Source: Cupriavidus necator (GTDB lineage: Bacteria; Pseudomonadota; Gammaproteobacteria; Burkholderiales; Burkholderiaceae). Taken from it: a stretch of DNA of 32,000 nt. The stretch spans positions 510,001-542,000 of the forward strand of contig NZ_CP066018.1 in the NCBI RefSeq assembly GCF_016127575.1, in the 5' to 3' direction. Both the position numbers and the translations under genes were made by a program. Below are positions 4,354-32,000 of the stretch, piece after piece (positions within the stretch are counted from its first letter, which is position 1; every line of letters begins with the position of its first letter). The notes under the pieces are model-generated. The model did not search any database and was not told the origin of the DNA. It was given only the letters and a program-made list of their open reading frames with translations.

Positions 4354-4368
4354 CGCATTCTGGCCGGA

Positions 4369-4952: not shown

Positions 4953-5465
4953 ATGAACGCCACGAACCATGGGACCTGTCTGCTGGCCCTTCTGTTGTCG
5001 GTGGCGTGCGCGCCATTGCCGATTGTCAAGCGCGCCCCCGCACCGCCGCCCGAGGCGAAGGGCGAAGCAATCGCCGCCGCGCCCAAGGAGCGCGCCACCC
5101 CGATCGCGAACAAGACCATCAACATTGCCGCCGCCTGCAAGCGCACCGAGGAAGACGGCTTCCGCGAAGACGCGCTGATGGACGTCAAGGCCAACGAGGT
5201 GCGTGCGCTCAAGTGGAAGCTATGGGTATCGCGGCGCGGCAGTTGCGAATTCAACCTGGCCGAGTTCCGCCAGGTCCGCGCGACCCCGCACATCGAACTG
5301 CAGGCCATCGACGGCAGCCAGTGCAAGCTGCTGGTGTGGCAGGATCCGCGCCGCGTGACGCTGGCCCATAACCGCTGCGAGAAGCACTGCACGCCCGGCA
5401 TCTACGAGCAGGCGTGGCCGGTGCTGTTCGACCCAAAGAGCGGTGCCTGCGCCGAGGTGCGCTGA
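4953..5465 (+). CDS. secreted or lipoprotein-like hypothetical protein
   Basis: ATG at 4953 is preceded by AAGGAG (4941-4946). The N-terminus MNATNHGTCLLALLLSVAC is signal-peptide-like with a weak lipobox. No family recognised. Confidence 0.6.
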   Translation: MNATNHGTCLLALLLSVACAPLPIVKRAPAPPPEAKGEAIAAAPKERATPIANKTINIAAACKRTEEDGFREDALMDVKANEVRALKWKLWVSRRGSCEFNLAEFRQVRATPHIELQAIDGSQCKLLVWQDPRRVTLAHNRCEKHCTPGIYEQAWPVLFDPKSGACAEVR

Positions 5466-5477
5466 GCCGCTGCGGCA

Positions 5478-6068
5478 TTACTTCGCTTTCGGCACCCGGC
5501 CCATCAGGTAGAACTCGTCGTTCGGGCGCATGCTGACGGTGTTGGCCATCCGGTTCGACAAGCCGAAGAACGCCGTGATCGCGGCAATATCCCAGGCATC
5601 CTCCTCGGAAAAACCGTGCTCGCGCAGCGCAGCAAAGTCGGCATCGCCCACTTCATGCGACGCCTTGCACACCTTCATCGCGAAGTCTAGCATCGCGCGC
5701 TGGCGCTGCGGAATATCCGCCTTCAGGTAGTTCACCGCCACCTGGTCCGCCACCAGTGGCTTCTTCTCATAGATGCGCAGGATCGCGCCATGCGCCACCA
5801 CGCAGTACAGGCACTGGTTGGCACCGGAAGTCGCCACCACGATCATCTCGCGCTCGCCCTTGGTCAGGCCGCCCTCCTTGAGCATGAGCGCGTCGTGGTA
5901 GGCGAAGAACGCGCGGAACTCGTCGGGACGGTGCGCCAGCGCCAGGAAGACGTTGGGGACGAAGCCGGCTTTTTCCTGGACTTCCAGGATGCGGGCGCGG
6001 ATGTCGTCGGGGAGGTCGGTCAGCGCGGGAACGGGGTAGCGGCTGATGGCGAATGCCGGGTCGGACAT
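5478..6068 (-). CDS. carboxymuconolactone decarboxylase / AhpD-like peroxidase-related protein
   Basis: ATG at 6068 (MSDPAFAISRYPVP...). The CLYCVVAHG CxxC-H motif and overall helical pattern are typical of the AhpD-core/CMD family. Confidence 0.75.
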   Translation of the reverse strand: MSDPAFAISRYPVPALTDLPDDIRARILEVQEKAGFVPNVFLALAHRPDEFRAFFAYHDALMLKEGGLTKGEREMIVVATSGANQCLYCVVAHGAILRIYEKKPLVADQVAVNYLKADIPQRQRAMLDFAMKVCKASHEVGDADFAALREHGFSEEDAWDIAAITAFFGLSNRMANTVSMRPNDEFYLMGRVPKAK

Positions 6069-6248
6069 GGTGGTCTCCTGTTGGATAGGCGTCATCGATC
6101 GTGAGCTTCTGATGCAGATACTAACGGATCGGCATGGGTGTGGCGGGCGCCATGTCGCCCATGCATCGCACGGACACATGTCCCCTGCATAAGGCATACT
6201 ACGCACCTTCCGAACCAGGCAGGCATACTGCCCACCATACTGTTCCTG

Positions 6249-7235
6249 ATGAAACGTATTCTCATCGTCAAGCTGACCTCTCTCGGCGACATGGTGTTCA
6301 CCCAGCCGCTGGTCGCGGACCTGCAGCGGGCCTTTCCCGGCGTCAAGATCGACTGGATCGCCGACTCATATTGCGCCGACGTGCCGCGCTGGAATCCGAA
6401 TATCGAGCGTGTGATTTCCGCGCCGCTGCGCGGCTTCAAGAAATCGCGCAATTGGGCTGGCTTGCGTGCGATCTTCAGCGCGCTGCGTGAACTGCGTCGC
6501 GAGAAGTACGATGCGGTGCTGGACGTCCACGGCGTCTACAAGAGCGCCATCGTGACGTTCCTGGCACGCACGCGCAATCGCTATGGCTACCCCGTGGCAG
6601 AGTTGGGCGAGAGCGGCGCTCGCTTCGCCTACAACCATGTGTTCCAGCCATTTGTCGAAGAAGATTGCGCGCGGCAGCGGATGCGCCGCGCCGTCAGCCG
6701 CGCCCTGGGCTATGAGCTGACCAGGGACATGGACTACGGCCTGGAGATGCCAGCAGACACGCCGGCGCCGGCCGCCAAGGGTCCGTACGCGATGCTGTTC
6801 CATGCCACCTCGAGCGAGGAAAAGAAGTGGCCGGTCGCCGACTGGATCAGCGTGGGCAGCGCGATCTCGGCGCGCGGGCTGCGCGTGCTGGTGCCCTGGG
6901 GCAACGACGCGGAGCGCAAGGAAGCCGAAACCATCGCCGCCAGCGTGCCCAACGCCGAAGTGATGCCACGCCTGAGCATCACCGGTGTGGCGCAGATGGT
7001 AGGCAAGGCATCGCTGGTGGTTGGCATGGACACCGGCTTCGTGCATATCGCCGATGCGCTGCGCCGCCCGACCGTGATCCTGTTCACGACCACGTCGCGC
7101 CACCTGTACGGCGTCGATGCGCCGGGCCGCGTGGTCTCGCTGGGCGGCGGCGGCGTGGTGCCGCGGCGGGATCAGGTGCTGGCTGCCATCGATGAAGTGC
7201 TGGGCGTGCAGCCGCCCGTCACCTCGCCAAACTGA
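6249..7235 (+). CDS. waaC: lipopolysaccharide heptosyltransferase I (GT9)
   Basis: ATG at 6249 (MKRILIVKLTSLGDMVFTQP). From memory it aligns along its length with E. coli WaaC: LFHATSSEEKKWP, LVPWGNDAERKEAE, VGMDTGFVHIADAL. Confidence 0.85.
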   Translation: MKRILIVKLTSLGDMVFTQPLVADLQRAFPGVKIDWIADSYCADVPRWNPNIERVISAPLRGFKKSRNWAGLRAIFSALRELRREKYDAVLDVHGVYKSAIVTFLARTRNRYGYPVAELGESGARFAYNHVFQPFVEEDCARQRMRRAVSRALGYELTRDMDYGLEMPADTPAPAAKGPYAMLFHATSSEEKKWPVADWISVGSAISARGLRVLVPWGNDAERKEAETIAASVPNAEVMPRLSITGVAQMVGKASLVVGMDTGFVHIADALRRPTVILFTTTSRHLYGVDAPGRVVSLGGGGVVPRRDQVLAAIDEVLGVQPPVTSPN

Positions 7236-7246
7236 GCACGAAGGAA

Positions 7247-7282
7247 ACGACAAAGGCCGGCGCAAGCGCCGGCCTTTGTCGT
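7247..7282. terminator. long perfect hairpin between convergent waaC and msbA (bidirectional terminator)
   Basis: ACGACAAAGGCCGGCGC-aa-GCGCCGGCCTTTGTCGT, a 17-bp stem, sits exactly between the two stop codons (7235 and 7294). Confidence 0.65.
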
Positions 7283-7293
7283 TGGCAGGTCCG

Positions 7294-9075
7294 TTACCCT
7301 TGCTGCGTCGCGAACTGGATCCGGTGCAGCCCGGCGTACAGGCCGTTGGCCGCAAGCAACTGCGCGTGCGTGCCCTGCTCCGCCACGCGCCCGTGGTCCA
7401 GCACCGCGATGCGGTCAGCATTCTCGATGGTGGACAACCGGTGCGCAATCACCAGCGTGGTCCGGCCCTTCATCAGTTCCTCCAGCGCCGCCTGGACCTG
7501 GCGCTCGGACTCCGAATCCAGTGCCGAAGTCGCCTCGTCCAGGATCAGGATCGGCGCGTTCTTATACAGCGCCCGGGCAATCGCCAGCCGCTGGCGCTGA
7601 CCGCCGGACAGCTTCATGCCGTTGTCGCCAATATTGGTGTTCAGGCCCTCCGGCAGCCCCTTGACCGTTTCCGTCAGGTAAGCGGCCGCCAGCGCGCGCT
7701 CAACGCGGGCCATGTCGATCTCGCGGTCGGATTGCGCGCCATATGCCACATTGGCGGCGACGGTGTCGTTGAACAGCACCACGTCCTGGCTGACGAAGGC
7801 AATCTGGTTGCGCAGGTCCTTCAGCGACAACTCGGTCAGCGGCGTGCCATCCAGCAGGATGCGCCCGCCAGTCGGGTCGAAGAAGCGCGGCACCAGGTTG
7901 ACCAGCGTGGTCTTGCCGCTTCCCGACGGGCCCACCAGCGCCACCACTTCGCCCGGACTGACGCGCAGGTCAATGCCCTCCAGCGCGGCGCGCGATGCTT
8001 CACCGTAGCGGAAGCCGACTTGCTCGAAGGCCAGCTCGCCACGGGCACGACCCAGCATCTTGCCACCGTCCTGCGGCTCGATCGGCTCATCGATCAGCCG
8101 GAAGATCATCTCGGCTGCGGTGATGCCGCGTGTCAGCGGCTGGTTGATGTCGGTCAGGTGCTTGAGCGGCGAGATCAGCAGCAGCATCGCCATCACAAAG
8201 CCGGTAAAACCGCCCACCGTGGTCTGGTTGGCCTGCGCCTGCACCATCGCAATGGTGATGATCACCGACAGCGCCAGCGCGGCCAGGAAGGCCGTGACCG
8301 GCTGGTTCAACCCGCCGGCAACCGCCATGCGCATCGAGTAGTTCTTGAGCCGCTCGGCCACGGTGCGGAAGCGGCCCATCTCGTAGGCCTCGCCGCCGTG
8401 CAGCTTGACCACCTTGTAGCCGCCCACGGCCTCTTCCACGACATAGGCAGCGTTGTTGGTAAAAGCCTGGTGATCGCGGTTGAGCTTGCGCAGCCGGCGG
8501 TTGATCTTCGACATCAGGTAGCCGATCACCGGCAGGATCACCGCCACGATCAGCGTCAGGCGCCAGTTGGTATAGAACAGGTAGATCAGCAGCGCGACAA
8601 CCGTCAGCGAGTCCCGCACCAGCGTGATAAAGACGCTGGTCAGGATCTGCAGCACCTGGTTGACCTCGAAGATCACGGCGTTGATCAGCGAAGCCGCCGT
8701 GTTGCGGTGGAAGAACGACGCCGGCGCCTGCAGCAGGCGCTCGAACATCTGCAGGCGCATCTTCAGCAGCACGCGGTTCGAGATCAGGTTCAGCAGGTAG
8801 CCCGAGGCAAACTGCGCCACGCCGCGGATCAGGGCCACGCCGGTCAGGATGGCGGGGACATGCCACAGCGTGCCGGCGTAGTCGCCGCCGAAGCCCTTGT
8901 CGAGCAGGTCATTGACAACCTTGGGGATCACCCCTTCGCTGCCCGCAACCACGGCCATGGCGAGGATAGCGCCGATGAAGATGCGTAACTCGGGGCGCAG
9001 GTAAGACCAGAGCCGGCTGGCCATGCTGGACGGCACGGCGGCACCTGGCGAAATGGGCGGTTTGGATGTGGTCAC
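7294..9075 (-). CDS. msbA: lipid A export ABC transporter, fused permease/ATPase
   Basis: 593-aa ORF with an N-terminal six-helix TMD, Walker [10 protein letters not shown], signature LSGGQRQR and Walker [13 protein letters not shown]. The LPS-gene context supports MsbA. Confidence 0.9.
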
Positions 9076-9115
9076 TGATATTTCTTGTGTGTGGAGGCGG
9101 CGTGCCGGCCCGGCG

Positions 9116-9889
9116 CTAGCCCGGCCGCTTCTGCCGGGCTACCCGAAGGAAGGGCCTGACGATGAGCTGGAACAGGAAGCGCTGATAGACGTAGCGGCGC
9201 AGATAATAGCCGATGCTGCGCTGAGCCTTGTCGGTGGCGTCCAGGTCGGCGCGATGCGTTTCGAGCGACGAGGTCTCGGCCAGCTCGGTCAGGCCGATGC
9301 AATATGGCACCACCGCACTGACCGACACCAGGCCCTGCTTTTCGAAGGCCGACCAGTAGTCGGCCGCGCACCACATCGGCTGCAAGCCCGCCAGCAGCCG
9401 TCGCGCTGCGGCACGCGTCACCACGTAGCCGTGCGCGCGCCACCATTCGCCGTAGCGCCTGACCAGGCGTCGTTCACCGCCGAGCCTGCGGGCACCCCAG
9501 CGGGTGTACTTGTCGACATGGGACAGCAGCACTACCTCGGCCCGGTCCGGATCCAGGCGCGACTCCAGGTCGGCCAGCACGGTTGCCAGGTCGGGGCCAG
9601 GCGAAGCATCGTCCTCCAGCACCAGCGCAAAGGCGGCGCCGTCGTCGAGCATCTTGCGGTATACACCGAGGTGGCTCAACCCGCACCCGACCTCGCCCCG
9701 GCTCATTGGCCGGTAGCGCGCGGCGGCGGCCGCGGCATCGTACTTGCTGGCCACTTCCTGCTCCGCCAGCACGCGGCCATCCACGGCCCGGAACACCTGG
9801 AACGGGATGCCAAGGCCCGCCAGCTGGCCGGAAATGCGCTCCCGGCGTTCCCGCGCGGAGTCGAGATTGATGACGTAGGCGCCGATCAT
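9116..9889 (-). CDS. glycosyltransferase family 25 (LPS/LOS core biosynthesis)
   Basis: ATG at 9889 ([38 protein letters not shown]...[10 protein letters not shown]...ALVLEDD) is a typical GT25 N-terminal pattern. Confidence 0.8.
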
Positions 9890-10188
9890 GCGGCCAGCAC
9901 CAGTGTGTCCAGTCTTGCCCAGATTGCAGCGGGCAACTGAGAGACCAATGCTGCACGCGCAGGCAGAAGGAAGACTTCTTCCATCCCGGCGGAACGGAAC
10001 AATTGTGCTCGTATCATCAATTTGAGTTTCAGGGAGCGGCCCGCTAGCCGACTCGATGGCATCAGGGTGCGCGGAGGGCGCCATGCGCCAGTGCGGTAGA
10101 ATACGCGGTCTCGATCCAGCGCCTGGCGCCGTGGGCGACTCCGGCGGCCCGTCGGTCTTGTCCGACCTGCGTGCCTCCCCTATGTTCC

Positions 10189-10968
10189 ATGAGAGTCTCG
10201 GCCGTCATCATTACTAGGAATGAAGCTCACAATATCGGGCCATGCCTCGAAAGCGTGTCCTGGTGCGAAGAGGCGATTATAGTGGATTGGGCCAGCACGG
10301 ATGACACTGTGGCGATTGCGCGTGCCGCCGGCGCCACCGTCATCCAGACCGACGACTGGCCTGGCTTCGGCCCGCAGAAGAACCGCGCGGTTGACGCCGC
10401 CACGGGCGACTGGATCCTGAGTCTCGACGCCGACGAACGTGTCACGCCCGCCCTGCGCGACGAGATCCTGGGCCATCTGAAGCGGTCCGACGCCCACGCG
10501 CTTGCGCTGCCGCGCCTGTCAGCGTTCTGCGGCACCTTCGTGCGCCACGCCGGCTGGTACCCGGACTATGTGACCCGCGTCTTCCGCAAGGGCCGCGGCC
10601 GCTTCACGGATGACCTGGTCCACGAACACCTGAAAGTGGACGACCCGGTCACCCATCTGCGCGAGCCGCTGATCCATTACAGCTACCGCACATTGTCGGA
10701 CGTGCTGCGCAAGATCGACAGCTACTCCAGCGCAGGCGCGCAGCAGGCCTACGCGCGGGGCAAGCGTAGTTCGGTGGCGTCCGCCGCGGGCCACGGCCTG
10801 TGGGCCTTCATCCGGACCTACCTGCTCAAGCGCGGCTTCCTGGACGGCAGCGCAGGCTTCGGCGTGGCGCTGATGAATGCGCAGGCAAGCTACTACAAGT
10901 ACGCCAAGCTGGCGCAGTTGCAGGCCGACACCGATCTCAAGGCAGCCGCCCCTGAGGTCACCCGTTGA
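10189..10968 (+). CDS. glycosyltransferase family 2 (LPS core, WaaE/KdtX-like)
   Basis: ATG at 10189 (MRVSAVIITRNEAHNIGPCLESV...). It has a DxD-type SLDADE motif and lies in LPS cluster context. Confidence 0.8.
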   Translation: MRVSAVIITRNEAHNIGPCLESVSWCEEAIIVDWASTDDTVAIARAAGATVIQTDDWPGFGPQKNRAVDAATGDWILSLDADERVTPALRDEILGHLKRSDAHALALPRLSAFCGTFVRHAGWYPDYVTRVFRKGRGRFTDDLVHEHLKVDDPVTHLREPLIHYSYRTLSDVLRKIDSYSSAGAQQAYARGKRSSVASAAGHGLWAFIRTYLLKRGFLDGSAGFGVALMNAQASYYKYAKLAQLQADTDLKAAAPEVTR

Positions 10969-11004
10969 GGCGCCGGCCGCCCCTCCCCTTTATTCCATGC
11001 ATCG

Positions 11005-12078
11005 ATGAAAGTTGGCATCTCCTGCAATCGCTTCGGCGCTGGCGGCGGCCTGGAACGCTATGCGCTCGACATCAGCCGGGCCATGGCAGGCCGCGCCGGC
11101 ACCGAGGTGTCGGTCTACGCGCGCCGCTTCGACGCCGGCGTGGCAGAGTCGGCCGGCATTGTCCCGCACCGGATCGTGGTGTCGTGGCTGCCCGGCAAGC
11201 TGCGCGACCGCTACTTCTCGTGGCGGCTGCAAGCGCGCCGTCCCGCGGACGAAGTGCTGATCGGCTGCAACCGCGTGCGCGGCTCCGATATCGCCATCTG
11301 CGGCGGCACCCATCGCGGCTATCTCGGCGCGCGCGGCACGACAGCGCGCCGCTCCGACCAGTGGCAGATCGACCTGGAGAGTGCGCAGTATGCTGGCGCG
11401 CACCGCGTGGTGGCACATTCGGCGCTGATGCGCCGCGAGGTGATCGAGCTGTACGGGATGCCGCCGGACCGCGTGGAACTGATCTACCCGCCGGTCGACA
11501 CGCAGCGCTTCACGCCGGTCGACGCCGACGCGCGCGCCGCGTTGCGCCGTGAGTTCGGTTTCGGTGACGATGAGGTCGTATTCCTGTTCCCGTCTTCGGG
11601 CCATGCCCGCAAGGGTTTCGACCTGCTTGCCGACTATTTCTCCAAATCGGACCTGCCGATCACGCTTGCCGTGGCCGGCCGTCCGGTCGGGCGCACCATC
11701 CCGCGGGTACGGGAACTGGGCTACAGCAGCCGCATCGACGCGCTCTACCGCGCCGCGGACTTCACCATCCTGGCGTCGGGCTATGAACCGTTCGGACTGG
11801 TCGGCGTGGAATCGGTGCTGTGCGGCACACCGCTGGTCTTTGCCGACAATATTGCCTGCCTGGAGGTGATCCGGCCGCAGGCGGTGCATGCCTTCGCACG
11901 CGATCGCGCCGAGACGCTCGACCGCGCGATTCACGCCGCGGTCGACGCGGCACGCAGCGGCCAGGGCCGGCTGGCGAATCCGATGGCGATGCTCAACTAC
12001 GATCCGGGCATCGAGGCCCACGTCGACGCGCTGCTAGCACTGGCGGCCAGCGCGCGCGCCGCCCGGCAGGCGGCCTGA
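11005..12078 (+). CDS. glycosyltransferase family 4 (GT-B, group 1)
   Basis: 357-aa ORF whose C-terminal ASGYEPFGLVGVESVLCGTPLV matches the EX7E motif of GT4 enzymes. Confidence 0.8.
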   Translation: MKVGISCNRFGAGGGLERYALDISRAMAGRAGTEVSVYARRFDAGVAESAGIVPHRIVVSWLPGKLRDRYFSWRLQARRPADEVLIGCNRVRGSDIAICGGTHRGYLGARGTTARRSDQWQIDLESAQYAGAHRVVAHSALMRREVIELYGMPPDRVELIYPPVDTQRFTPVDADARAALRREFGFGDDEVVFLFPSSGHARKGFDLLADYFSKSDLPITLAVAGRPVGRTIPRVRELGYSSRIDALYRAADFTILASGYEPFGLVGVESVLCGTPLVFADNIACLEVIRPQAVHAFARDRAETLDRAIHAAVDAARSGQGRLANPMAMLNYDPGIEAHVDALLALAASARAARQAA

Positions 12079-12097
12079 GACCGCCGCTGCCGTCGGC

Positions 12098-15000
12098 TTA
12101 TTCGTAGAGGGTGCTGACGCTGTCCGGCGACAGTGCCAGCCGCAACGCGGTCAGCGCCTCGTCGGAGGGCACCACCTTCCAGTCCGCTCCGAGCATGGCC
12201 TCGCACGAAGCCGCCCCCGACTGGTAGTGGATGCGCACCGGCAAACCCTGTCCACCGCTGGCGCGGGCCAGGTGCGGCATCAGCAGTTCGCGCAGCATCC
12301 CGGTCGAGGAATTGCCATTCATCGACAACCGCACGGCGCTGGCAAACTTGACGCGTGCGGCCACCAGGTCCATCACCGATTCCGCCGTAAACCTCACCCC
12401 ACCGGTAAACGTATCGTGCCGCGCGTTCCCCGTGGCGATCAGCAGCTCGTCCTCGCGGAACATGTGCCGGTTGGCGTCGAACAGCTCGTTGAACACCGTC
12501 ATCTCGACCAGCCCGGTGCCGTCGTCGAGCGTGACGATCACCATCTTGCCGCGCTGCGTCATCTGCGTGCGGACGCCGCTGATCACGCCGGCGATGGTCT
12601 TGCCGCGCACGTCGCGGCCGAAACCGCCGCCGTTGCCCTGCACTTCCTTTTCCAGCGCGGCCAGCGTGCCCTTGTTGAAGCGGCGCACCTCGTCGCGGTA
12701 GGCATCGAACAGGTGGCCTGAGAAGTAGTAGCCGAGCGCCTGCTTCTCTTCCTGCAGCGTGCGCTTGGGACTCCAGCGCGGCTCGTCGAGCAGCTCGGGG
12801 CGGTGCGCATCGCCGGCATCGCCCATCAGGTCGAACAGCGACACCTGGTTGGCGGACTCGGCCTTCTGCTCGGCGGCCTCCATCGCGATCGGCACCGAGG
12901 CCAGCAGCTGGGCGCGGTTGTCGTTCAGGCTGTCGAAGGCGCCGGCGCGGATCAGCGCCTCGATGGTGCGGCGATTGACCTGGCGGCGGTCGACGCGTTC
13001 GCAGAAGTCGAACAGATCGGTGAACGGGCGCTCCTCGCGTGCGCGCAGGATATCTTCGATCGCGCCCTGGCCGCTGCCCTTGATGCCACCAAGGCCGTAG
13101 CGGATGGTCTTGGGGTCGGTCGGCGCGAAGCGGTATTCGCTGGCGTTGACGTCCGGCGGCAGCACCGCGAGCTTGTTGAGCTTGCAGTCCTCGTAGAGGA
13201 TCTTGACCTTGTCGGTGTCGTCCATGGCGAGCGACATGTTGGCTGCCATGAATTCGGCCGGATGGTGGGCCTTGAGCCAGGCGGTGTAGTACGCCAGCAG
13301 CGCATACGCGGCCGCGTGCGACTTGTTGAAGCCGTAGCCCGCGAACTTCTCCATCAGGTCGAAGATATCGTCGGCCTGCTGCGCGGAGAGGCCGTTCTTG
13401 TCGGCGCCTTCGCGGAACATGACGCGATGCTGGGCCATCTCCTCGGGCTTCTTCTTGCCCATGGCGCGGCGCAGCAGGTCGGCGCCGCCGAGCGAGTAGC
13501 CGCCGATGATCTGCGCCATCTGCATCACCTGCTCCTGGTAGACCATGATGCCGTAGGTCTCTTTCAGGACGGGTTCGACGCGCGGATCCGGGTACTCCAC
13601 CTTCTCGCGGCCGTGCTTGCGCGCGCAGAAGCTGGGGATCAGGTCCATCGGGCCCGGGCGGTACAGTGCCACCAGCGCGATGATGTCCTCGAAGCGGTCA
13701 GGCTTGGCGTCCTTCAGCATGCCCTGCATGCCGCGGCTTTCCAGCTGGAACACGGCGACCGTGTTGGCGGTCTTGAGGATATCGAAGGCGGGACCGTCGT
13801 CGAGCGGGATATGGCTGCAGTTCCAGTCAGCCTTGCTGGGGTCGAGACGGCGGATATAGCGCTCGGCCCAGTCCAGGATGGTCAGCGTGGTCAGGCCCAA
13901 AAAGTCGAACTTGACCAGGCCGGCGGCCTCGACGTCGTCCTTGTCGTACTGGCTGACCACGCCGCTCATGCCGTCGTTCTGCGCGCCCTGCGTGTACAGC
14001 GGGCAGAAGTCGGTCAGCCGGCCGGGCGCGATCAGCACGCCGCCGGCATGCATGCCGACGTTGCGGGTCATGCCTTCGACGCGCTGTGCCAGCTCCAGCA
14101 GCTGGCGCACTTCTTCCTCGTTGCTCTCGCGCTCGGTCAGCAGCGGCTCTTCCTTCTTGGCTTCCTCGATGGTGACCAGCTTGCCCGGCTTGAACGGGAT
14201 CAGCTTGGCGATGCCGTCGACAAAGCCGTAGCCGAGATCGAGCACCCGGCCCACGTCGCGCACCGCGGCCTTTGCCGCCATGGTGCCGAAGGTGGCGATC
14301 TGCGATACCGCGTCCTTGCCGTACTTCTCTTTCACGTACGTGATCACGCGATCGCGGCCGTGCTGGCAGAAGTCGATGTCGAAGTCGGGCATCGAGACCC
14401 GTTCCGGGTTCAGGAAACGCTCGAACAGCAGCGCGTACTTGAGCGGATCCAGGTCGGTAATGCCGAGCGCATACGCGACCAGCGAACCGGCGCCCGAACC
14501 GCGGCCCGGTCCCACCGGCACGCCGTTGTTCTTGGCCCAGTTGATAAAGTCCGCCACGATCAGGAAGTAGCCGGGGAAGCCCATCTTGATGATGGTGCCG
14601 GTCTCGAATTCCAGCCGTGCGTAGTATTCCGGGCGCTTGGATTCGCGCACCGCCTCGTCGGGGAACAGCACCGCCAGGCGCTTCTCCAGCCCGTCCTTGG
14701 CCATGTAGACCAGGTAGTCGTCCAGCGACATGCCGTCGGGCGTCGGGAACAGCGGCAGGCGCGGCTTGCCCAGTTCCAGCGTCAGGTTGCAGCGGCGCGC
14801 GATCTCGACCGCGTTCTCCAGTGCCGAGGGGATGTCGGCGAATAGCGCGCACATCTCGTCCTGGGTCTTGAAGTACTGGTCGGTGGTAAAGCGCCGCGTG
14901 CGGCGCGGATTGGCCAGCAGCTCGCCCTCGGCGATGCACACGCGCGCCTCGTGCGCGGTGTAGTCGTCCGGCGTCATGAACTGCACCGGATGCGTGGCCA

Positions 15001-23938: not shown

Positions 23939-24808
23939 TCAGAACAGCGAACCCTGCGGATCGTCCTTGCCGCGGGGCCCCCTGACTGGCGGGCGGAAAC
24001 GCGACGTATCCAGCTCGAACCGGTTGTAACGAAACCCTAGCCGTTCGGCGGCCTTGTAGAAACGCTGGCGCAGCAAGTCCGCCCACACGCCCGTACCGCG
24101 CATGCGCGAGGCAAAGCTGGCATCGTAGGCTTTGCCCTCGCGCATGTCGCGCACGCGGTTCATCACCCGTTCCGCGCGCTCGGGAAAATGCGCCAGCAGC
24201 CATTCCTCGAACAGAGGCCGCACTTCCCAGGGCAGCCGCAGCACGATGTAGTTTGCATAGACGGCGCCCGCTTCGTGCGCCGCTTCCAATACACGCTCCA
24301 GGTCGGGTTCGGTGATGAACGGGATCACCGGGGCGATGCTCACACCCACCGGGATGCCGGCGTCGGTCAGCGTGCGGATGGTGCGCAGCCGGCGTGACGG
24401 CGTGGCCGCGCGCGGCTCCAGCGTGCGCGCGATGCCAGCATCCAGCGTGGTGATGGTGACCGCCGCCACCGCCAGCCGCTTCGCCGCCATCGGCGCGAGC
24501 AGGTCGATATCGCGCTCGATCAGAGACGACTTGGTAATCAGCGCCACCGGGTGGTCGCACTCGTTCAGCACCTCCAGCACGCCGCGCGTGATGCGCTGTT
24601 CGCGCTCGATCGGCTGGTAGGCGTCGGTGTTGACGCCCAGCGCGATGGTCTCGCAGCGGTAAGACGGCCGTGCCAGCGCCTCGCGCAACCGCTCGGCGGC
24701 GTTGGCTTTGGCATAAAGCTGCGTTTCAAAGTCCAGCCCTGGCGACAGGTCCAGGTAGGCGTGCGTCGGCCGGGCGAAGCAGTAGATGCAGCCGTGTTTT
24801 ATGGTCCG
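23939..24808 (-). pseudogene. 5'-truncated native radical-SAM gene (PA0069/SplB-like family)
   Basis: The open frame reads ..RTIKHGCIYCFARPTHAYLDLSPGLDFET...DDPQGSLF and is collinear with residues ~82-361 of the intact paralog at 24957..26042. An in-frame TGA lies at 24809-24811. Roughly the first 80 codons and the first Cys of CxxxCxxC are absent. Homology stops at about 24800, where G+C drops. Confidence 0.75.
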
Positions 24809-24914
24809 TCATTTTGTTCACGTTAGTTGGTAACTCCCTGTGCCATCAACCTCTCTGGGTATTTTTTCCGTGCGATGGTGGGGGGGCGCGAACATTGTTT
24901 TTCACGGCCAAATA

Positions 24915-24930
24915 CTGTATATATATACAG
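24915..24930 (+). promoter_or_regulatory. LexA (SOS) box
   Basis: CTGTATATATATACAG is a perfect CTGT-N8-ACAG palindrome (extended form TACTGTATATATATACAGT, 24913-24931). It lies 27 nt upstream of the radical-SAM ATG and overlaps a possible TTCACG-N17-TATACA promoter. Confidence 0.8.
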
Positions 24931-24956
24931 TGCATCAAGACTTAAGAGAGGCGCTG

Positions 24957-26042
24957 ATGACATCACTTCGCCCGGGACTTCGCAAGGGCCGAGGCGCGCT
25001 GTCCAACATTGAATCCAGGTTCGACAATTGGGACAGAGCGCACGACGACGATGCACTTGCAGCCATTTTAGAGCTCGAGGGTGAACGCCCCGCGCCCAAA
25101 ACAACTGTAGCATTTGAGGATGCAAAATCAATCATCTCGAGAAACCAATCGCCAGATGTCCCATTTGACCAGTCGATTAATGCATACCGGGGATGTGAAC
25201 ATGGTTGCTCGTACTGTTTTGCCCGGCCTACGCATGCATATTTAGGCCTTTCCCCCGGCCTTGATTTTGAGACCAAGCTTACTGCGAAGCCAAATGCTGC
25301 TGTGTTACTCGAGAAAGAGCTTTCAAAACGTACCTATATACCTAGCGTAATTGCCCTCGGTACCAATACTGACCCATACCAGCCTATTGAGCGAGAACAC
25401 CAGCTGACTCGCAGAATCCTCGAGGTGCTCGAGGCTTTCAATCATCCGGTAGCGATTACTACCAAGTCGCATCTCGTGACACGCGACATCGACATCCTCT
25501 CGCGGATGGCGGAGAAGGGTCTCGCTCGCGTCTATCTCTCCGTCACCACGCTGGATGCGGAGCTTGCTAGGAGGATGGAGCCGCGTGCCAGCACCCCATC
25601 TAGGCGAGTGGACGCTATTCGCATGCTGACTGCTGCCGGGATACCCACCGGTGTATTGGCCGCGCCTATGATTCCCGCGCTTAACGATTATGAACTGGAG
25701 AATATCCTAAGCGCAACTGCAAATGCCGGTGCGTCCGCTGCCGCTTATGTGTTGCTCAGATTACCGCTGGAGGTGCACGACATCTTCATCGAATGGCTCG
25801 AGCAACACTACCCCGGACGGAAGAATCATGTCCTGAGCATTATTGAAAGCATGAGAGACGGCAAGCATTATGACGCCGAATTCGGGCGCAGAATGCGCGG
25901 CACGGGCATATTCTCAGAGCTGATTGCCAAACGATTCGAGCTTGCATGCAATCGGCTCGGCCTCAATCAGGAACGCAGAAAACTGCGTACCGACCTATTC
26001 CAGGCACCCATTAATCCTTCGCCCCAGGGAAGCTTATTCTGA
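24957..26042 (+). CDS. radical SAM protein, PA0069 / SplB-like (COG1533) family, intact lower-G+C copy
   Basis: ATG at 24957 follows AGAGAGG. It carries the CEHGCSYC radical-SAM cluster motif, and its 361 aa are collinear with the truncated native copy on the opposite strand. Confidence 0.85.
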   Translation: MTSLRPGLRKGRGALSNIESRFDNWDRAHDDDALAAILELEGERPAPKTTVAFEDAKSIISRNQSPDVPFDQSINAYRGCEHGCSYCFARPTHAYLGLSPGLDFETKLTAKPNAAVLLEKELSKRTYIPSVIALGTNTDPYQPIEREHQLTRRILEVLEAFNHPVAITTKSHLVTRDIDILSRMAEKGLARVYLSVTTLDAELARRMEPRASTPSRRVDAIRMLTAAGIPTGVLAAPMIPALNDYELENILSATANAGASAAAYVLLRLPLEVHDIFIEWLEQHYPGRKNHVLSIIESMRDGKHYDAEFGRRMRGTGIFSELIAKRFELACNRLGLNQERRKLRTDLFQAPINPSPQGSLF

Positions 26043-26204
26043 GGCAGTCAGGAATACTTGAGGTGACTTCGCCAGCCATAAACTCGCGGCTGCCACCACA
26101 GGTGTTTGCCGAGGCGGACTGGAGGCGCTCTCGAACCGCAAAAGTGAGGTGCGCTAGCCGCCGGCTTGTGCAAACCCAAAACGACGGTAGGCCATCAGCC
26201 AGGC

Positions 26205-26246
26205 TGTGGATAAGCTGTTATTAACATGTGGATAGTCTGTGGATAG
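26205..26246 (-). repeat. three co-oriented DnaA-box-like 9-mers
   Basis: TGTGGATAA (26205-26213; the complement TTATCCACA is the consensus DnaA box) and TGTGGATAG twice (26227-26235, 26238-26246). Start-to-start spacing is 22 and 11 bp, with an AT-rich TTATTAA between boxes 1 and 2. Confidence 0.6.
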
Positions 26247-26547
26247 TGCGTTTGGCACGGGCGCCATGCGATTGATGGGGCGAACCATGGAGGTCTAGGA
26301 GTCCTACTAGGTAGTCACCAACCGAACGAGTTCGCCCCAAGAAATCGCGGACGTCCACGTGAACCCACCGTCGCGAAAACGCAACAGTTCCCAAAGTGCT
26401 TCGCCCGGCTCAACCGCGACCATGTCGCTAGAGTGGACCCGCATGCAGCCTTCCAGAAGGTCATATACCCGTAAAGGACTTGCGCATGTGCACCACAAAC
26501 CACGAGCACATTGTCCAATATCACCCACGTACCAACCGTAATCTGCC

Positions 26548-27253
26548 ATGACTGCCCATTGCCCGGAATGCTACGGCGAACGCGAATGTAGTGTCCATGG
26601 AGAGGTCAAAGTACCGTGGGAATGGACGGATGGACCGCATAGCGTCAACGGCCAGACGGATCATCGACTACTGCAGTGCTTGGGTTGCAAGACCGTGCTC
26701 TACTGGTCCAGCAGTTGGAATTCCGAAGATTGGGGATGGCCGCACTGGTGCCGACGGCAAGGAGCAAATCTATCACCCGCGTACCGTCACGACTTTCCCT
26801 ACACCGCAGCGCGTCAGCCGGCGTCCTGAATGGCTCGCCAAGATCGAGCAGATCGACGCCCATCTCTCGCAGATCTTGCACCAGACCTACATCGCCCTGG
26901 AAGCGGATGCGTTCATTCTAGCGTCGGTGGGCTTGCGTACCGCCTTTGACCGGACTACCGAGATCCTGAAACTCGATCCCGGACACACGCTGGAACAGAA
27001 GGTCGCCCTGCTTAAGGACAAGGGCTACATCGGGGAAACTGAGGCGGCAATTCTGTCAGTGGTTACCGATGCGGGCAATGCGGCCGCCCATCGCGGGTGG
27101 TCCCCTGGGGCTGCGGAATTCCGGGTCTTGCTTATCGCATTGGAGCAGTTCATCGAACGCACGGTGATTCAGGGCACCACTGCCCTAGGCATCGCCCAGC
27201 ACATCCCACCGCGGCACCCGCGCCCGAAGCGTGCATTCTCGGGGGCAAAGTAA
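26548..27253 (+). pseudogene. zinc-ribbon + DUF4145-like protein, apparently split by a +1 frameshift near 26730
   Basis: Frame 1 (26548..26829) starts MTAHCPEC...LLQCLGCKTVLY, i.e. CxxC...CxxC. Frame 2 (to 27253) carries LEQKVALLKDKGYIGETEAAILSVVTDAGNAAAHRGW, a DUF4145-type helical motif. The upstream part of frame 2 and the downstream part of frame 1 both look non-coding. The G-run TGGGGA lies at 26731-26736. Confidence 0.5.
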
Positions 27254-27396
27254 GCGTAATTATGTTGCCCCGCCTGCCGCGAAAAATGCCGACGCATTCA
27301 GCCTGCCTGGCGCCGTCCGCCCCGCCGTGGGTTTCCCCGCGCGGCGCGCCACCTTCCCCAGGGCTCCCCGCAAATGGAGGATCGCCTAGCCGCGCA

Positions 27397-28182
27397 ATGT
27401 CGGGTAGCATTCGCCGTGACGTGAAAGCCCCGCAAGGGGCATTGATCCCTCTGCCCATGTTTTCGTACGCCTGCAGCCAAACGGCCGCCCAGCACCCGCT
27501 CGCCTCTTTCCGCACGCCCGTCGACGGGCCGGAGCTGGAGATCGTGCGGTTGTTCTGCGAGACGCTGCCCGCCCGTGCACCGCGCAACCGCGCCACGACC
27601 GTATTTCTTGAACCCAGGATCGCGGGCTGCTTTCCCGATGTGGTCATCGTGCAGTGGGATCCCGCCATTGCGGCGGCCTGGGTGCCTGCGCGGGAGCACC
27701 TGGAAAGCGGCGATACGTTCTGGCTGCACTACCTGCATCAGGTCGGCACCCTCGATCCCACCGTCCTGTGCGAGCGACTGGGCAGGAAACGCGGCCTGCA
27801 GACATGGGAACGCCTGCTTGCCGCAGAGGTGGGCCGGCAGGCCGGGGACCGGTTGCGGCGCAAGCCACTGGCCGAGACCTATGCGATCAAGCGCCTCGTG
27901 GCTGTGGAGGCCAAGATCGGCAACTGGCGCCGCGGCCTGGAGCAGGCCTTCCAGAACACGTGGTTCGCCTCCGAGTCATTCCTGCTGCTCGATCGGCTTG
28001 AGGGCAAGGATGACCTGTTTCTCCGCGCCGCCGACCTAGGTATCGGCCTGATCGAGCCGGCCCACGGCATCGACGACAGCCGGCTGCCCGCCCGATGCGG
28101 CAAGCATCCGGTCTCCCAGGCGTCCTGGCTCTTCAACGAGTGCGTGCGGCGCGACGGTCCAAACACGGCGAGCCGACACTAG
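27397..28182 (+). CDS. hypothetical protein with PD-(D/E)xK nuclease-like motifs
   Basis: FLEPRIAGCFPDVVIVQWD (Asp codon 27637-27639) and LVAVEAKIGNWRRGLEQA (E-x-K at 27907-27915) flank a helical, wHTH-like segment. The start is ambiguous (27262, 27286, 27397 or 27457); 27397 was chosen because the upstream Pro-rich translation looks non-coding. The stop TAG directly abuts the kinase ATG. Confidence 0.55.
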   Translation: MSGSIRRDVKAPQGALIPLPMFSYACSQTAAQHPLASFRTPVDGPELEIVRLFCETLPARAPRNRATTVFLEPRIAGCFPDVVIVQWDPAIAAAWVPAREHLESGDTFWLHYLHQVGTLDPTVLCERLGRKRGLQTWERLLAAEVGRQAGDRLRRKPLAETYAIKRLVAVEAKIGNWRRGLEQAFQNTWFASESFLLLDRLEGKDDLFLRAADLGIGLIEPAHGIDDSRLPARCGKHPVSQASWLFNECVRRDGPNTASRH

Positions 28183-29028
28183 ATGCACGCGCCCCTGACC
28201 GATCTGCCTGCGGAATTCCAGCGTTTCCAGAATCTGCATTTCATTGCCTCGGGGGGACAGAAGATCGTCTTTCGCGGCACGTGCCCGCAGCATGGCGCCA
28301 TCGTCCTGAAAGTGTTCAATCCGGGAACCGACATGGCGCGGTTCGAACGCGAACTGAGCGCGGTACAGCGCATCCAGTGCCCCCTGACGCCCACCATCCT
28401 GGAATCGGGCATGACCCGGCAAGGCGGCCAACCGATCCCGTACGTGGTCGAGTCGTTCATCCCCGGCGCATCGATTCAGCAGCACCTGGACGCCGGCAGC
28501 CTGCAGGACCCGAATGTCGTCCGACTGGCGACCGACATCCTCCAGGTGCTCACCCTGACCGAGCAACGCGGTATCGTGCATCGCGACATCAAGCCTGCCA
28601 ACCTGCTCCTCCATGCCGACACGGGGGCGATCTGGCTGCTGGACTTTGGCATCGCGCGCCATCTTGACCGGACCGCCCTCACCGTGGGCCCCATCGGTCC
28701 CTGTACCGCCGGATTCGCGCCACCGGAGCAGTTCAACGCGCTCGCGGCCGAAGTCGACGTGCGCAGCGACCTGTTCGCCTTGGGCGTCACCCTTCATACC
28801 TGCATCGAAGGCCGCAACTTCTATTGCGAGGGCGCACGAGACCACGTGGAGGTCTTCCAGCGTGTGCAAAGCGTTCCCTTACCGCGGCTCACGCGCGAGC
28901 CTTGCGGTGTCGCGGGATTCGCCGACCTGGTGATGGCGCTCACGCAGATACGGCGCAGCCATCGGCCGCACTCGGCCGCCGAGGCACGTGACTGGCTCGC
29001 AGAACTGTTGGTCCAATACCAAGCATGA
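28183..29028 (+). CDS. Hanks-type serine/threonine protein kinase (stand-alone catalytic domain)
   Basis: 281 aa with IVLKVF (Lys), RFERE (Glu), VHRDIKPANLL (HRD at 28579-28587), LDFGIAR (DFG at 28642-28650), GFAPPEQ and DLFALGVTL. Confidence 0.85.
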   Translation: MHAPLTDLPAEFQRFQNLHFIASGGQKIVFRGTCPQHGAIVLKVFNPGTDMARFERELSAVQRIQCPLTPTILESGMTRQGGQPIPYVVESFIPGASIQQHLDAGSLQDPNVVRLATDILQVLTLTEQRGIVHRDIKPANLLLHADTGAIWLLDFGIARHLDRTALTVGPIGPCTAGFAPPEQFNALAAEVDVRSDLFALGVTLHTCIEGRNFYCEGARDHVEVFQRVQSVPLPRLTREPCGVAGFADLVMALTQIRRSHRPHSAAEARDWLAELLVQYQA

Positions 29029-29091
29029 GACAACCGCCCGCCCGCGCCAACGGTTTTCGGGACGGGGAGATTCTGACAGGGGGACATTGCG

Positions 29092-30297
29092 GTGGAACTG
29101 CATCTGCAAATGGGGCACGGCATGATGGACCATTGCCGCGTGCTGGTCGGCGCATGGCGGGGCGGCACCGTCGTGCTGAGTCCGCGCGATCTGGACATGC
29201 AGCAAATGGTCCGCCTGTCGGAGGATCTGGCGAGAGATGGCGGACGGGTCCTGCTTGACCCGCAGATGTTCCTGCCGCAGGCCAGCCACCCACGGCTGGT
29301 CGGCCATGCGCACTGGGCGCAGGGCGGCAACCTGCAACAACCTGCCACCGTGGCGCACATCATGGAACGCCTGATCGACATGAATGCGGCATGCGGCGCG
29401 CAGCAGATCATCCTGCCTGGCGCCCTGGCCGCAAAGGTCGACGCCGCCTGGCTGGATGCCATGGCGCAGGTCGGCGAATGCGCCCAGCGCCTGGGCGTCG
29501 ACAGTGCCCGCGCCATGCAGACCATTGCGCTGAGCTATGACGCTGTTCGCGATGACAAGCAGGTGGAAGCCGTTGTCGAGGCCATGGACGCCTGGCCCGC
29601 GCGCACCATCTATCTAATCGCCGAAGCCCCGTCGGGGGTCTATCTGGTGAACGATCCGACATGGTTCGCCAATATTCTGGACATCGTCGCCAGCGCCCGC
29701 TTGAGCGGAAAACAGGTCATGCTCGGCTATGCCAATCAGCAACTGCTGGTGGCCGCCTGCGCAGGCGCGAATGCCATCAGTTCGGGGACCTGGATGAACG
29801 TCCGTATCTTCATGCAAAATCGCTTCCTTGCCGCTGACGAGGAAGACCGGAAGACGCGCTCCACCTGGTACTACGCCCCCAATCTGTTCTCGGAGTACAG
29901 GATCCAGAATCTGGATATTGCCCAAAAGCTGGGCTTGCTCGACCATCTGCGCACACCGGACGATTTTGGCAGCGGGCATGCAGACGTCCTGTTCTCCTCG
30001 CTCCAGCCGACGCTGGCGGGCTTTGCCGAACCCAGTTCGTTCCGGCATTTCCTGCAGTGCCTGCGGACGCAAGCCCGCGCGGCCTCGCTGGGTTCATTCG
30101 AGAGCACGCTATCCAGTTACCGCCAGGCGCTCGACGCCGCCCAAGCAGTGCTCGAGCGCCTGGATAAAAAGTCCGTCTCAAGCAAGCAACGCAACATCCT
30201 GGCCAGCGAATGCATCGATGCCGTCCGCGCTGGCCTGCATGTCCTCGAACGGAACCACGGCCCTCGCCTGCGCAGGCTTTGGGGAAGACTGTCATAG
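29092..30297 (+). CDS. hypothetical 401-aa protein, no family recognised
   Basis: GTG start at 29092 is preceded by AGGGGGA. The long ORF is same-strand with protein-like composition and alternating hydrophobic-strand/helix segments (VVLSPRDLD, QIILPGA, TIYLIAEAP, VMLGYAN..GANAISSGTWMN). Confidence 0.6.
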   Translation: MELHLQMGHGMMDHCRVLVGAWRGGTVVLSPRDLDMQQMVRLSEDLARDGGRVLLDPQMFLPQASHPRLVGHAHWAQGGNLQQPATVAHIMERLIDMNAACGAQQIILPGALAAKVDAAWLDAMAQVGECAQRLGVDSARAMQTIALSYDAVRDDKQVEAVVEAMDAWPARTIYLIAEAPSGVYLVNDPTWFANILDIVASARLSGKQVMLGYANQQLLVAACAGANAISSGTWMNVRIFMQNRFLAADEEDRKTRSTWYYAPNLFSEYRIQNLDIAQKLGLLDHLRTPDDFGSGHADVLFSSLQPTLAGFAEPSSFRHFLQCLRTQARAASLGSFESTLSSYRQALDAAQAVLERLDKKSVSSKQRNILASECIDAVRAGLHVLERNHGPRLRRLWGRLS

Positions 30298-30468
30298 CCA
30301 GCGCGACCCGCTTGTCCATGCGCAGCGGTTGACCTAAGCGCGCGTCCCCGATGACGCGGTGGTGGTCAAACGCCACCGCCCCCCTGACCTACCTGGCGAC
30401 GCGCGGCTTGCCGATCGCCCGGCTCCGCCGCCGACGCCCTTTGCCCGGCGCCCGACACAGCCCAAGTC

Positions 30469-32000
30469 ATGACGAGTTCGAAATATCAGTTTCTGGCGCC
30501 CACGGTGGCGCTCCTTTCCGACAAGGTCGTACTGGCCCAGGCCTGGAAGAAAACGCACACCTATATCCGCAAACATAACTGGTTTGCCGACACGCTCGAA
30601 CTCGACACGTCGGCGGTCGATCTTGAGCAAACCTTGGAACAGTGGGCGCAAACGCTGCGCACAGGCCAATATCTTAACCAGGCGGCCAGGATGGTTCCCG
30701 CACCCAAAAGCGGCCGCTGGGTCATCGGCACCGTGCCCCAGCGGCCAGAGCCTGGCTGGTATCCCGTGGTCGACCCCGGTGAAGCGCCCGTTCTCCGGCC
30801 ACTCGCGCATCTTCCCGTCCGGGAGCAGACCGTGGCCAGTGCCCTCATGCTCTGTCTTGCGGATTGCATCGAAACGCTCCAGGGGCCCACCATCGGGCAT
30901 GCCGACTTCGCCGAGGCGCAGCGCATGGGCGTGTACAGCTATGGAAACCGCCTGCTGTGTTCCTGGACCGAGCTCCTGCCGGGGACGAAACATGCCCGGT
31001 TTCGTTGGGGCAACTCCGACATCTACACGCGATACTTCACCGACTATCAGCGATTCATCGACCGGCCCAAGTACTTTGCCGAACAGGCGCGCGACAAGGG
31101 TGGCACCGTGCTGCTCGTCAAGCTGGATCTGTCCGCTTTCTACGACAACATCGACGTTGGACGACTAATCGAGTCCCTGCGGCGACACTATGCGAAGTTT
31201 TGCGAAACATTTCCTGATTATCCCAAGCACGACGAGGATTTCCTCGCGGTGGCGCGCGAAGCCCTGACGCTGCGCTGGGATCCTCAGGACTCGACCTATG
31301 CGCCCCTGCTACGCGACCGCGCTCTACCCAGAGGTCTGGCGCAGGGTCTGGCCGCCAGCGGCTTCTTTGCCAACGCCTACCTGATCGACTTCGACAAGGA
31401 AATTGGACGTCAGCTCAACACCGCGATTCACTTCGAAGGAGACGAGTTCACTCTGGTGGACTACTGTCGGTACGTCGATGATCTGCGTATCGTCGTCTCG
31501 GTCGACGCCAGGCTGCCGCACACACACATCCCTGGCGTGATTACCCAATGGGTCCAGCGTATCCTGGACGTGACGGTGAACGAGCATGTCGAGGACGACC
31601 GCAACGTTCTGAAACTGAACGCACGCAAGACCGAGCACGAAGAGTTCGCGGCCGTCAGCGCGGAAAGTGGCGATGTGGCGGCCATGCGCCTGCTGCAGCA
31701 AAGCCTGAGTGGCCCGTTTGATCTGGAATCGCTCCAACAGACCTCGGCGGGCCTGAACGGCCTTCTCGCACTGGCCGAACTCAGCCGCGAGGCCGAGACA
31801 AGCGCTCCCTCGTCTTCGCCCTTGTCCCTCATCGAACGGCCCAAGCTACAGGTCAAGGACGATACGCTGACGCGGTTTGCAGCGTTTCGCCTTGTCAAAA
31901 GCCTGCGACTGAAGATGAGCTTTCTGGGCGAGGAGGCGGCCGGTGTCGCGCACGAATGCGAAGCCGTCGCGCGTCGCCTCGCGGCCGCCTGGGTCACGAA
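30469..32000 (+). CDS. reverse transcriptase (UG/Abi-like, non-retroviral), 3' end beyond the window
   Basis: Own translation from the ATG at 30469; the frame opens after a TGA at 30385-30387 and has no stop through 32000. RT motifs are VLLVKLDLSAFYDNID, LPRGLAQGLAASGFFANAYL, YCRYVDDLRIVV (YVDD at 31471-31482) and LKLNARKTEH. It is not in the ORF track because the ORF is open-ended. Confidence 0.85.
   Translation, partial: MTSSKYQFLAPTVALLSDKVVLAQAWKKTHTYIRKHNWFADTLELDTSAVDLEQTLEQWAQTLRTGQYLNQAARMVPAPKSGRWVIGTVPQRPEPGWYPVVDPGEAPVLRPLAHLPVREQTVASALMLCLADCIETLQGPTIGHADFAEAQRMGVYSYGNRLLCSWTELLPGTKHARFRWGNSDIYTRYFTDYQRFIDRPKYFAEQARDKGGTVLLVKLDLSAFYDNIDVGRLIESLRRHYAKFCETFPDYPKHDEDFLAVAREALTLRWDPQDSTYAPLLRDRALPRGLAQGLAASGFFANAYLIDFDKEIGRQLNTAIHFEGDEFTLVDYCRYVDDLRIVVSVDARLPHTHIPGVITQWVQRILDVTVNEHVEDDRNVLKLNARKTEHEEFAAVSAESGDVAAMRLLQQSLSGPFDLESLQQTSAGLNGLLALAELSREAETSAPSSSPLSLIERPKLQVKDDTLTRFAAFRLVKSLRLKMSFLGEEAAGVAHECEAVARRLAAAWVT

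Follow-up and report, generated by a model that had tools for sequence, protein, structure and literature searches.

We analysed a 32,000-nucleotide (nt) stretch of the Cupriavidus necator chromosome (NZ_CP066018.1, positions 510,001 to 542,000; hereafter "the window"), the last part of which carries five consecutive plus-strand genes. A preliminary description, made from the sequence letters, had regarded these genes as a defence-type island in foreign DNA and had proposed that they constitute one undescribed anti-phage system. The five genes and the defence-type character of the island were confirmed; the single system was not. The locus is probably a composite defence island of three independent units on the same strand: a frameshifted zinc (Zn)-ribbon/DUF4145 gene, a mobile cassette of three genes, and the reverse transcriptase (RT) gene drt1a. 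These units share a strand by chance and are not a single system. The cassette genes, which encode proteins of 241, 281, and 401 amino acids (aa), were named A, B, and C, respectively. Judged from sequence comparison, A-B-C is an autonomous, horizontally mobile three-gene unit that is apparently unnamed. The features of the locus are as follows.

26548..27253, plus strand: Zn-ribbon and DUF4145 gene, frameshifted (Pfam DUF4145, plasmid homologues, phrog_1305).
27457..28182, plus strand: cassette gene A, 241-aa PD-(D/E)xK-fold protein with a winged-helix insert, predicted nuclease (invariant motifs, AlphaFold2 [AF2] model).
28183..29028, plus strand: cassette gene B, 281-aa Hanks-type Ser/Thr kinase consisting of the kinase domain only (Pkinase match, invariant residues).
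29092..30297, plus strand: cassette gene C, 401-aa TIM barrel with a C-terminal helical bundle, predicted enzyme (AF2 model).
30298..30468, no strand: 171-nt spacer between C and drt1a (no Rfam family, no terminator-like or promoter-like site).
30469..32000, plus strand: 5' part of drt1a, residues 1-510 of 1258, running past the window (PADLOC Drt1a).

Conservation and spread of the A-B-C cassette

We compared the 80 best loci for C, which represent ~18 phyla, using tblastn with all eight island proteins and a neighbourhood of 8 kb. B was located directly upstream of C in 78 of the 80 loci, and A upstream of B in 73; every missing A or B was accounted for by a contig end. Individual look-ups revealed the same A-B-C order in Nannocystis, Desulfosarcina, and Methylotenera, and plasmids of Bacillus mycoides and of the haloarchaeon Natribaculum carried the trio in the same arrangement. 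The spacing between A and B was mostly -4 to +20 nt, with a few predicted overlaps of up to 71 nt, suggesting translational coupling. In the window, the start ATG of B abuts the TAG stop of A (...ACTAGATGCAC), as had been reported. The spacing between B and C was bimodal (~0-34 nt or ~64-90 nt). Pairwise identities of A, B, and C were correlated with one another (r 0.80-0.86, Mantel p=0.001; 60 loci). Together with the synteny, this correlation indicates that A, B, and C travel and evolve together.

No RT and no copy of the Zn-ribbon/DUF4145 gene was detected by tblastn within 8 kb of any of the 80 cassette loci, and the cassette was absent from all four of the other Drt1a loci, which are environmental. 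The cassette is therefore independent of both the RT and the DUF4145 gene. Co-occurrence across genomes, which had been suggested as a check on the five-gene proposal, thus held for A, B, and C and failed for the two outer genes. A conserved fourth cassette gene was rejected, since no family (Pfam and PADLOC) occurred more than three times among 84 immediate neighbours in 40 loci.

The distribution of the cassette is rare and patchy. With one genome per species, C was encoded by 119 of 185,579 species (~0.06%). The word-indexed homologues of C (n=176) were 42-63% identical and near-constant in length, and a full profile search gave at least 205 clusters (50% identity) at E<=1e-30. Members of the 150 best clusters listed were ~400 aa long or shorter fragments, and none of these had a domain fusion. 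A phage origin of the cassette was rejected: tblastn of C against 50,697 phage records gave no match, and neither A nor C belonged to a PHROG.

Eight flavobacterial isolates (L073 and L075-L081), labelled Flagellimonas, Croceitalea, Cytophaga, Maribacter, Euzebyella, and Allomuricauda, have a cassette-bearing stretch in common. In seven of these it extends for at least 14.2 kb (1-14207) at 93.5-99.99% DNA identity; in the eighth (L081) only ~8 kb is common, at 98.7% identity. This pattern indicates a mobile element that has probably spread recently.

Gene A encodes a predicted nuclease

A starts at ATG 27457 and encodes 241 aa, the same length as its homologues; a start at GTG 27097, which would give a longer open reading frame (ORF), was ruled out by the homologue lengths. 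The nuclease-type motifs to which the preliminary description drew attention are real. E26, P60-D61, E151-A-K153, and Q163 were invariant in 46-72 homologues. These residues form the classical PD-(D/E)xK signature, and the order of strands and helices in the AF2 model (predicted local distance difference test score [pLDDT] 90.5) matched the alpha-beta-beta-beta-alpha-beta core. The D and the ExK are separated by an insert of approximately 90 residues that resembles MarR/Lrp winged helices (E 0.02-0.05). Fold matches were all of the expected kind (VC1899, Card1, XPF, Ecl18kI, and EcoRII; best E 0.01). Because these matches are weak, fold-level support for A is moderate. Neither A nor C had a family in Pfam (2025), NCBIfam r20 (June 2026), PADLOC-DB 2.0, or PHROGs. 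We assign A, with moderate confidence, to the PD-(D/E)xK superfamily as a predicted nuclease carrying a winged helix-turn-helix (wHTH) domain.

Gene B encodes a minimal Hanks kinase

B matched Pfam Pkinase (1e-19). K43, E57, HRD133-135, K137, N140, DFG154-156, T167, E182, D196, and R261 were invariant in 72 B homologues; these include all Hanks catalytic residues and the activation-loop Thr (T167), in agreement with the earlier description of a catalytically complete kinase. The protein is a bare kinase domain without a sensor domain, and no partner phosphatase was found. B thus looks like a minimal, active Hanks Ser/Thr kinase, as predicted from its sequence.

Among PADLOC models, B matched PD-T4-6 over its full length (2e-38) and mad6 (1e-28). 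In Streptococcus thermophilus, PD-T4-6 models flag a gene that is present in every analysed genome; its product carries a Ser/Thr kinase domain at the N-terminus and, after it, two kinase-binding modules in tandem (PMC11514479). We read this gene as encoding a housekeeping kinase of the PASTA type. Since the same models flag a ubiquitous kinase gene, the PD-T4-6 label of B is unspecific. Single-gene PD-T4-6 from Escherichia coli and Stk2-type abortive infection resemble B in that a stand-alone Hanks kinase acts in defence; however, PD-T4-6 is defined as one gene and its models are generic for Hanks kinases, whereas B is flanked by A and C wherever the sequence allows. Membership of B in the MADS system, as Mad6, was rejected: the score with NF047741 was 76 bits (cut-off 460), a mad2-type methylase was present in only 3 of the 84 neighbours, and no other mad genes were conserved.

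Gene C encodes a predicted TIM-barrel protein of a new family

The AF2 model of C (pLDDT 92, predicted template-modelling score [pTM] 0.92) showed a TIM barrel followed by a helical bundle. Invariant polar residues were located at the C-terminal ends of seven of the eight barrel strands, which is the usual catalytic face of a TIM barrel. The invariant residues include Q6, R32-D33, D56/Q58, E178-H179, and S231-G-T-W-M-N-V-R238; the family has no conserved cysteine. A profile search of the PDB revealed no sequence-level link to solved structures, and fold searches returned generic TIM-barrel matches only (E ~1e-4 to 1e-3), several of the top ones being xylose-isomerase-type barrels. The statement that this 401-aa protein could not be placed was upheld in the four libraries of hidden Markov models (HMMs) named above; with its many homologous clusters, however, C is not an orphan. 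The model suggests that C is a predicted enzyme representing a new TIM-barrel family.

The best whole-chain template-modelling (TM) scores of C were obtained with tRNA-guanine transglycosylases (TGTs): 0.48/0.53 with 2ash (PDB) and 0.44/0.57 with a viral TGT (BFVD). C and TGT/DpdA proteins have in common a TIM barrel plus a C-terminal subdomain, and TGT gave the best whole-chain superposition (TM ~0.45-0.55). Membership of C in the TGT/DpdA family was rejected: no TGT appeared in the PDB profile search at E<=10, and an invariant Cys for the zinc site was lacking. These considerations bear on the idea that the cassette resembles a restriction-modification (RM) system, with C as a TGT/DpdA-like base-exchange enzyme or other DNA modifier that marks self, A as the cognate endonuclease, and B as a regulator. 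TGT gave the best global TM-scores in both fold libraries, A combines a wHTH with a restriction-endonuclease fold, and the cassette can be embedded in BREX (bacteriophage exclusion), a modification-based system. However, Foldseek E values for TGT (1.5e-3 and 4.9e-4) were no better than those for unrelated TIM barrels, the profile search and the cysteine pattern of the family give no sign of a TGT, and no preQ0 or other precursor-synthesis genes are conserved beside the cassette. We consider an RM-like cassette unlikely.

A side observation concerns the spacer that precedes C. This spacer is 64-90 nt long in 39 of 71 homologous cassettes, mostly 78-82 nt (L012-L086; e.g., L036 7918-8000, L019, and L027), and most spacers of this class open with an in-frame mini-ORF, M-[ED]-L-Y-[LV]-H-x-G-M-F-x-R-R-W. 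The mini-ORF is a diverged copy of the N-terminus of C itself (MELYLQFGYGMM), with conserved residues and variation at third codon positions. It may encode either a leader peptide or an extension of 26 aa at the N-terminus, in which strand 1 of the barrel is duplicated. It is absent from the B-C spacer of the window (29029-29091).

Defence context and proposed function of the cassette

The cassette was found within type-3 BREX operons of one deltaproteobacterial and one actinomycetotal metagenome-assembled genome, between pglXI and brxH. The gene order was brxC - unknown - pglXI - A-B-C - brxH - pglZ - brxA, and the reading frames touch or overlap. Location inside BREX, DISARM, or RM loci has already served as a successful predictor of new defence genes (bioRxiv 10.1101/2024.01.29.577857). 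In Methylotenera, the cassette adjoins a Tn7-like transposition module, an Mrr-like nuclease, and a NACHT protein; on the Bacillus plasmid it adjoins two recombinases, and in C. necator the DRT1 (defense-associated reverse transcriptase 1) gene. Its neighbours in other loci include DruA, XhoI, GmrSD, DNA methyltransferases, and transposases. A full-text literature search revealed no described defence system that combines a kinase, a nuclease, and a TIM-barrel protein.

In the two BREX operons, the gene between brxC and pglXI encodes a 503-575-aa protein (L062 1496-3223 and L063 2072-3583) with weak matches to SIR2/pAgo-associated PADLOC models (E 1e-7 to 1e-12). This protein may be a second embedded effector.

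The closest parallel is with the N-terminal, nuclease-plus-kinase half of PglW. In PglW of type-2 BREX, which is encoded with pglX, pglY, and pglZ, and in some DndF proteins, a NERD restriction-endonuclease domain is fused to a pseudo-kinase, an active Ser/Thr/Tyr kinase, winged helices, and sensor domains, and these proteins have been proposed to be sensory hubs with backup effectors (PMC12839542). The cassette likewise pairs a PD-(D/E)xK-fold nuclease and winged-helix DNA binding with an active Ser/Thr kinase, and the type-3 BREX operons that host it have no PglW. The resemblance is one of logic only: the cassette consists of separate genes whereas PglW is a single protein of 1400-1600 aa, the cassette has no pseudo-kinase, A has no NERD match in Pfam, and PglW has no counterpart of C. 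A split PglW in the strict sense was rejected, as B scored 36 bits with NF033442 (cut-off 990) and A and C gave no match.

All three cassette proteins look catalytically active. The cassette is most likely a kinase-controlled nuclease defence module. An infection cue would activate kinase B, possibly via the invariant activation-loop Thr167; B would then phosphorylate A and/or C, or host or phage proteins. Phosphorylation would release A, acting as a nuclease on DNA, as well as the activity of the enzyme C, and phage replication would stop or the cell would die, such that the outcome could be either restrictive or abortive. We propose tentatively, at somewhat less than even confidence, that A-B-C is an undescribed anti-phage system distributed across bacteria and archaea, in which protein phosphorylation links the sensing of infection to a nuclease and to a kind of enzymatic activity new to immunity, and that it is a split, portable counterpart of PglW able to plug into BREX.

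Several points weigh against this proposal. The assignment of A as a nuclease derives from motifs and from fold matches whose best E was 0.01. The fold matches of C are generic and include some sugar epimerases and aldolases near the top. Ordinary metabolic genes account for many of the cassette's neighbours. The gap between C and the RT gene in the window is only 171 nt and has no predicted terminator; co-transcription, or a local interplay of function, is therefore possible in this strain. Finally, which protein phosphorylates which is pure inference.

Two of these points would also fit a cassette with no role in immunity. Such a cassette could be a toxin-antitoxin-like module serving the addiction or stabilisation of mobile elements, or its kinase could control, as part of a regulatory or metabolic operon, a TIM-barrel enzyme acting on a sugar or phosphometabolite. 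Such a reading accommodates the epimerase and aldolase matches of C and the metabolic flanking genes, and also the location of the cassette beside plasmid recombinases and on the shared flavobacterial element. For a metabolic operon, however, an obligatory partner with invariant PD-(D/E)xK residues would be unusual, as would occurrence in ~0.06% of species over ~18 phyla plus archaea; such an operon is not expected inside BREX operons with overlapping genes, and no metabolic neighbour was conserved among the 84 neighbours of 40 loci. We regard a non-immune role as improbable, and retain the kinase-controlled defence module as the preferred interpretation.

The reverse transcriptase is DRT1

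The final 10 kb of the window was 100% identical to a 21-kb locus of C. necator chromosome CP196472.1 (L001; L001 coordinate = window coordinate - 19091), which supplied the sequence past 32000 that the preliminary description had asked for. The RT gene starts at ATG 30469, and its full-length product in L001 is 1258 aa. The catalytic motif is intact (YVDD, residues 335-338), as had been stated. The part of the protein encoded in the window matched PADLOC Drt1a with E=1.4e-165, and the full protein matched it with E=0 and 1306 bits over profile positions 5-1176 of 1176. An RTasNitrilase model matched residues 743-1251 (2e-101), and the nitrilase Glu motif (FPE, 1034-1036) and Cys motif (CYD, 1136) were present; the next-best non-DRT1 RT model was UG5-nitrilase (8e-37). 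Residues 3-1252 aligned (6e-176) with the sole DRT1 whose structure has been solved, PDB entry 9yfd ("Defense-associated reverse transcriptase 1"). UG1 proteins are RT-nitrilase fusions of 1200-1300 aa (PMC9226505), and the present RT shares with DRT1 this length class, the YVDD motif, and a C-terminal C-N hydrolase domain with Glu and Cys motifs; it is in the ~36% identity class relative to other environmental Drt1a proteins. These findings demonstrated that the RT is a typical full-length DRT1 (UG1, class 3 UG/Abi RT-nitrilase), a new member of a known family.

The preliminary description had recognised no named system in the locus and had excluded DRT1-9. This holds for the kinase region, for which no named system was found, and not for the RT; HMM searches assigned the RT to Drt1a and did not assign the inner three genes as a unit to any described system. 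Other RT classes were rejected. A retron was not supported, as no Rfam family reached gathering score anywhere in L001 and the retron RT model scored 29 bits (cut-off 235). A group II intron was not supported by any Rfam intron match, and group_II_RT_mat gave 35.9 bits (cut-off 300). A diversity-generating retroelement was rejected because no direct repeat >23 nt occurred in the 16 kb around the RT, which in any case was assigned to Drt1a. The RT thus fell outside the group II intron and diversity-generating classes, placement in which had been given beforehand as a ground for abandoning the defence interpretation.

In UG1 loci, a transmembrane (TM) neighbour is present in 33 of 175 cases (~18-19%); it is the sole partner reported by Mestre et al., with no kinase association (PMC9226505). 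In L001, a 292-aa protein encoded 117 nt downstream of drt1a has two N-terminal transmembrane segments, as does Drt1b. Its identification as Drt1b was not confirmed: it matched no PADLOC model even at E<=10, Drt1b included, and it was missing from the four other Drt1a loci.

These results bear directly on the original proposal that all five genes form one undescribed RT-centred system, in which the RT senses infection or makes cDNA while the kinase and nuclease serve as signalling or effector partners. The genes are on the same strand and closely spaced, with no predicted terminator between C and the RT, and all encode defence-type domains. However, as described above, neither the RT nor the DUF4145 gene accompanied any of the 80 cassettes, and none of the four Drt1a loci had a cassette. 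As a complete DRT1, the RT carries a nitrilase effector of its own in the same polypeptide, and one DRT1 gene is sufficient for protection (PMC13275509). The DUF4145 gene has a frameshift, and in C. necator H16 the RT gene carries an insertion while the cassette is intact. A five-gene system is very improbable.

The H16 insertion was seen in the reference chromosome (AM260479.1; L003 11547-12866). It is a 1320-bp ISL3-family element near drt1a codon 57, corresponding to window position ~30638. The drt1a gene is intact in the strain of the window, and the A-B-C cassette is intact in both strains.

The Zn-ribbon/DUF4145 gene is frameshifted

The first gene of the five had been described as a Zn-ribbon/DUF4145-like gene. 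Both domains were present, in a gene that is interrupted: the Zn-ribbon ORF (26548-26829) lies in one frame and the DUF4145 ORF (26591/26630-27253) in another, and the Pfam DUF4145 match (4e-10) is on the downstream frame. Residues 4-65 of an intact 248-aa homologue from Burkholderia anthina align to the first frame and residues from 66 onward to the second, and tblastn with the Burkholderia protein changes frame at 26735. The frameshift was therefore placed at ~26733, in a GGGG run (26730-26737). It was common to all C. necator contigs retrieved, in which gene callers give products of 207 or 220 aa. When repaired, the 235-aa fusion matched single intact ORFs on 64 plasmids, the best being that of B. 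anthina (61% identity), and the repaired family corresponded to phrog_1305 over its full length. In other places, intact homologues occur on their own. The gene is an independent, broken neighbour of the cassette and probably a pseudogene, although the GGGG run may instead be a slippery site.

Surroundings of the island

In L001, the gene order was housekeeping genes (rimM, rpsP, and others), a LysR regulator, two radical-SAM paralogues, the five genes, three plus-strand genes, and a minus-strand lipase gene. The claim that the region is foreign DNA is plausible, as the G+C content falls to 0.53-0.57 at 25-27 kb vs. ~0.65-0.69 around it; no integrase, att-like repeats, or tRNA-independent markers of island ends were found. 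A promoter and terminator scan of 26000-30700 gave nothing exceeding shuffled expectation.

The radical-SAM paralogues are arranged head to head (23939-24688, minus strand; 24840-26042, plus strand). The minus-strand copy is missing ~150 residues at its N-terminus; its identity to the full-length plus-strand copy (G+C 0.53) is 50%. The arrangement suggests a native gene that was cut short at the edge of the island, next to an imported replacement.

The three plus-strand genes that follow drt1a (L001 15272-18355; window-equivalent 34363-37446) encode proteins of 292, 210, and 395 aa. The 210-aa gene overlaps the 292-aa gene by 11 nt and its product belongs to phrog_4784, of unknown function; the 395-aa protein has no family. 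All three proteins were absent beside the other Drt1a loci (n=4) and within 8 kb of the 80 cassette loci.

Implications

The DRT1 part of the island is unremarkable, its contribution being one intact betaproteobacterial copy and, in H16, a natural allele disrupted by an insertion sequence. Automated annotation would call the locus "DRT1 + PD-T4-6", and would thereby overlook the two locked, unnamed partners of the kinase. The item of interest is the cassette, in which a predicted nuclease and a kinase, both of known kinds, are joined to a new predicted TIM-barrel enzyme. If the cassette is indeed a defence system, it would represent a compact and phylogenetically very broad form of kinase-based immunity, together with a new, unannotated TIM-barrel family of at least 205 clusters. 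With its nuclease and kinase as separate small proteins, the cassette would then also provide a tractable model for the working of PglW-like nuclease/kinase modules, such as those of type-2 BREX and DndFGH.

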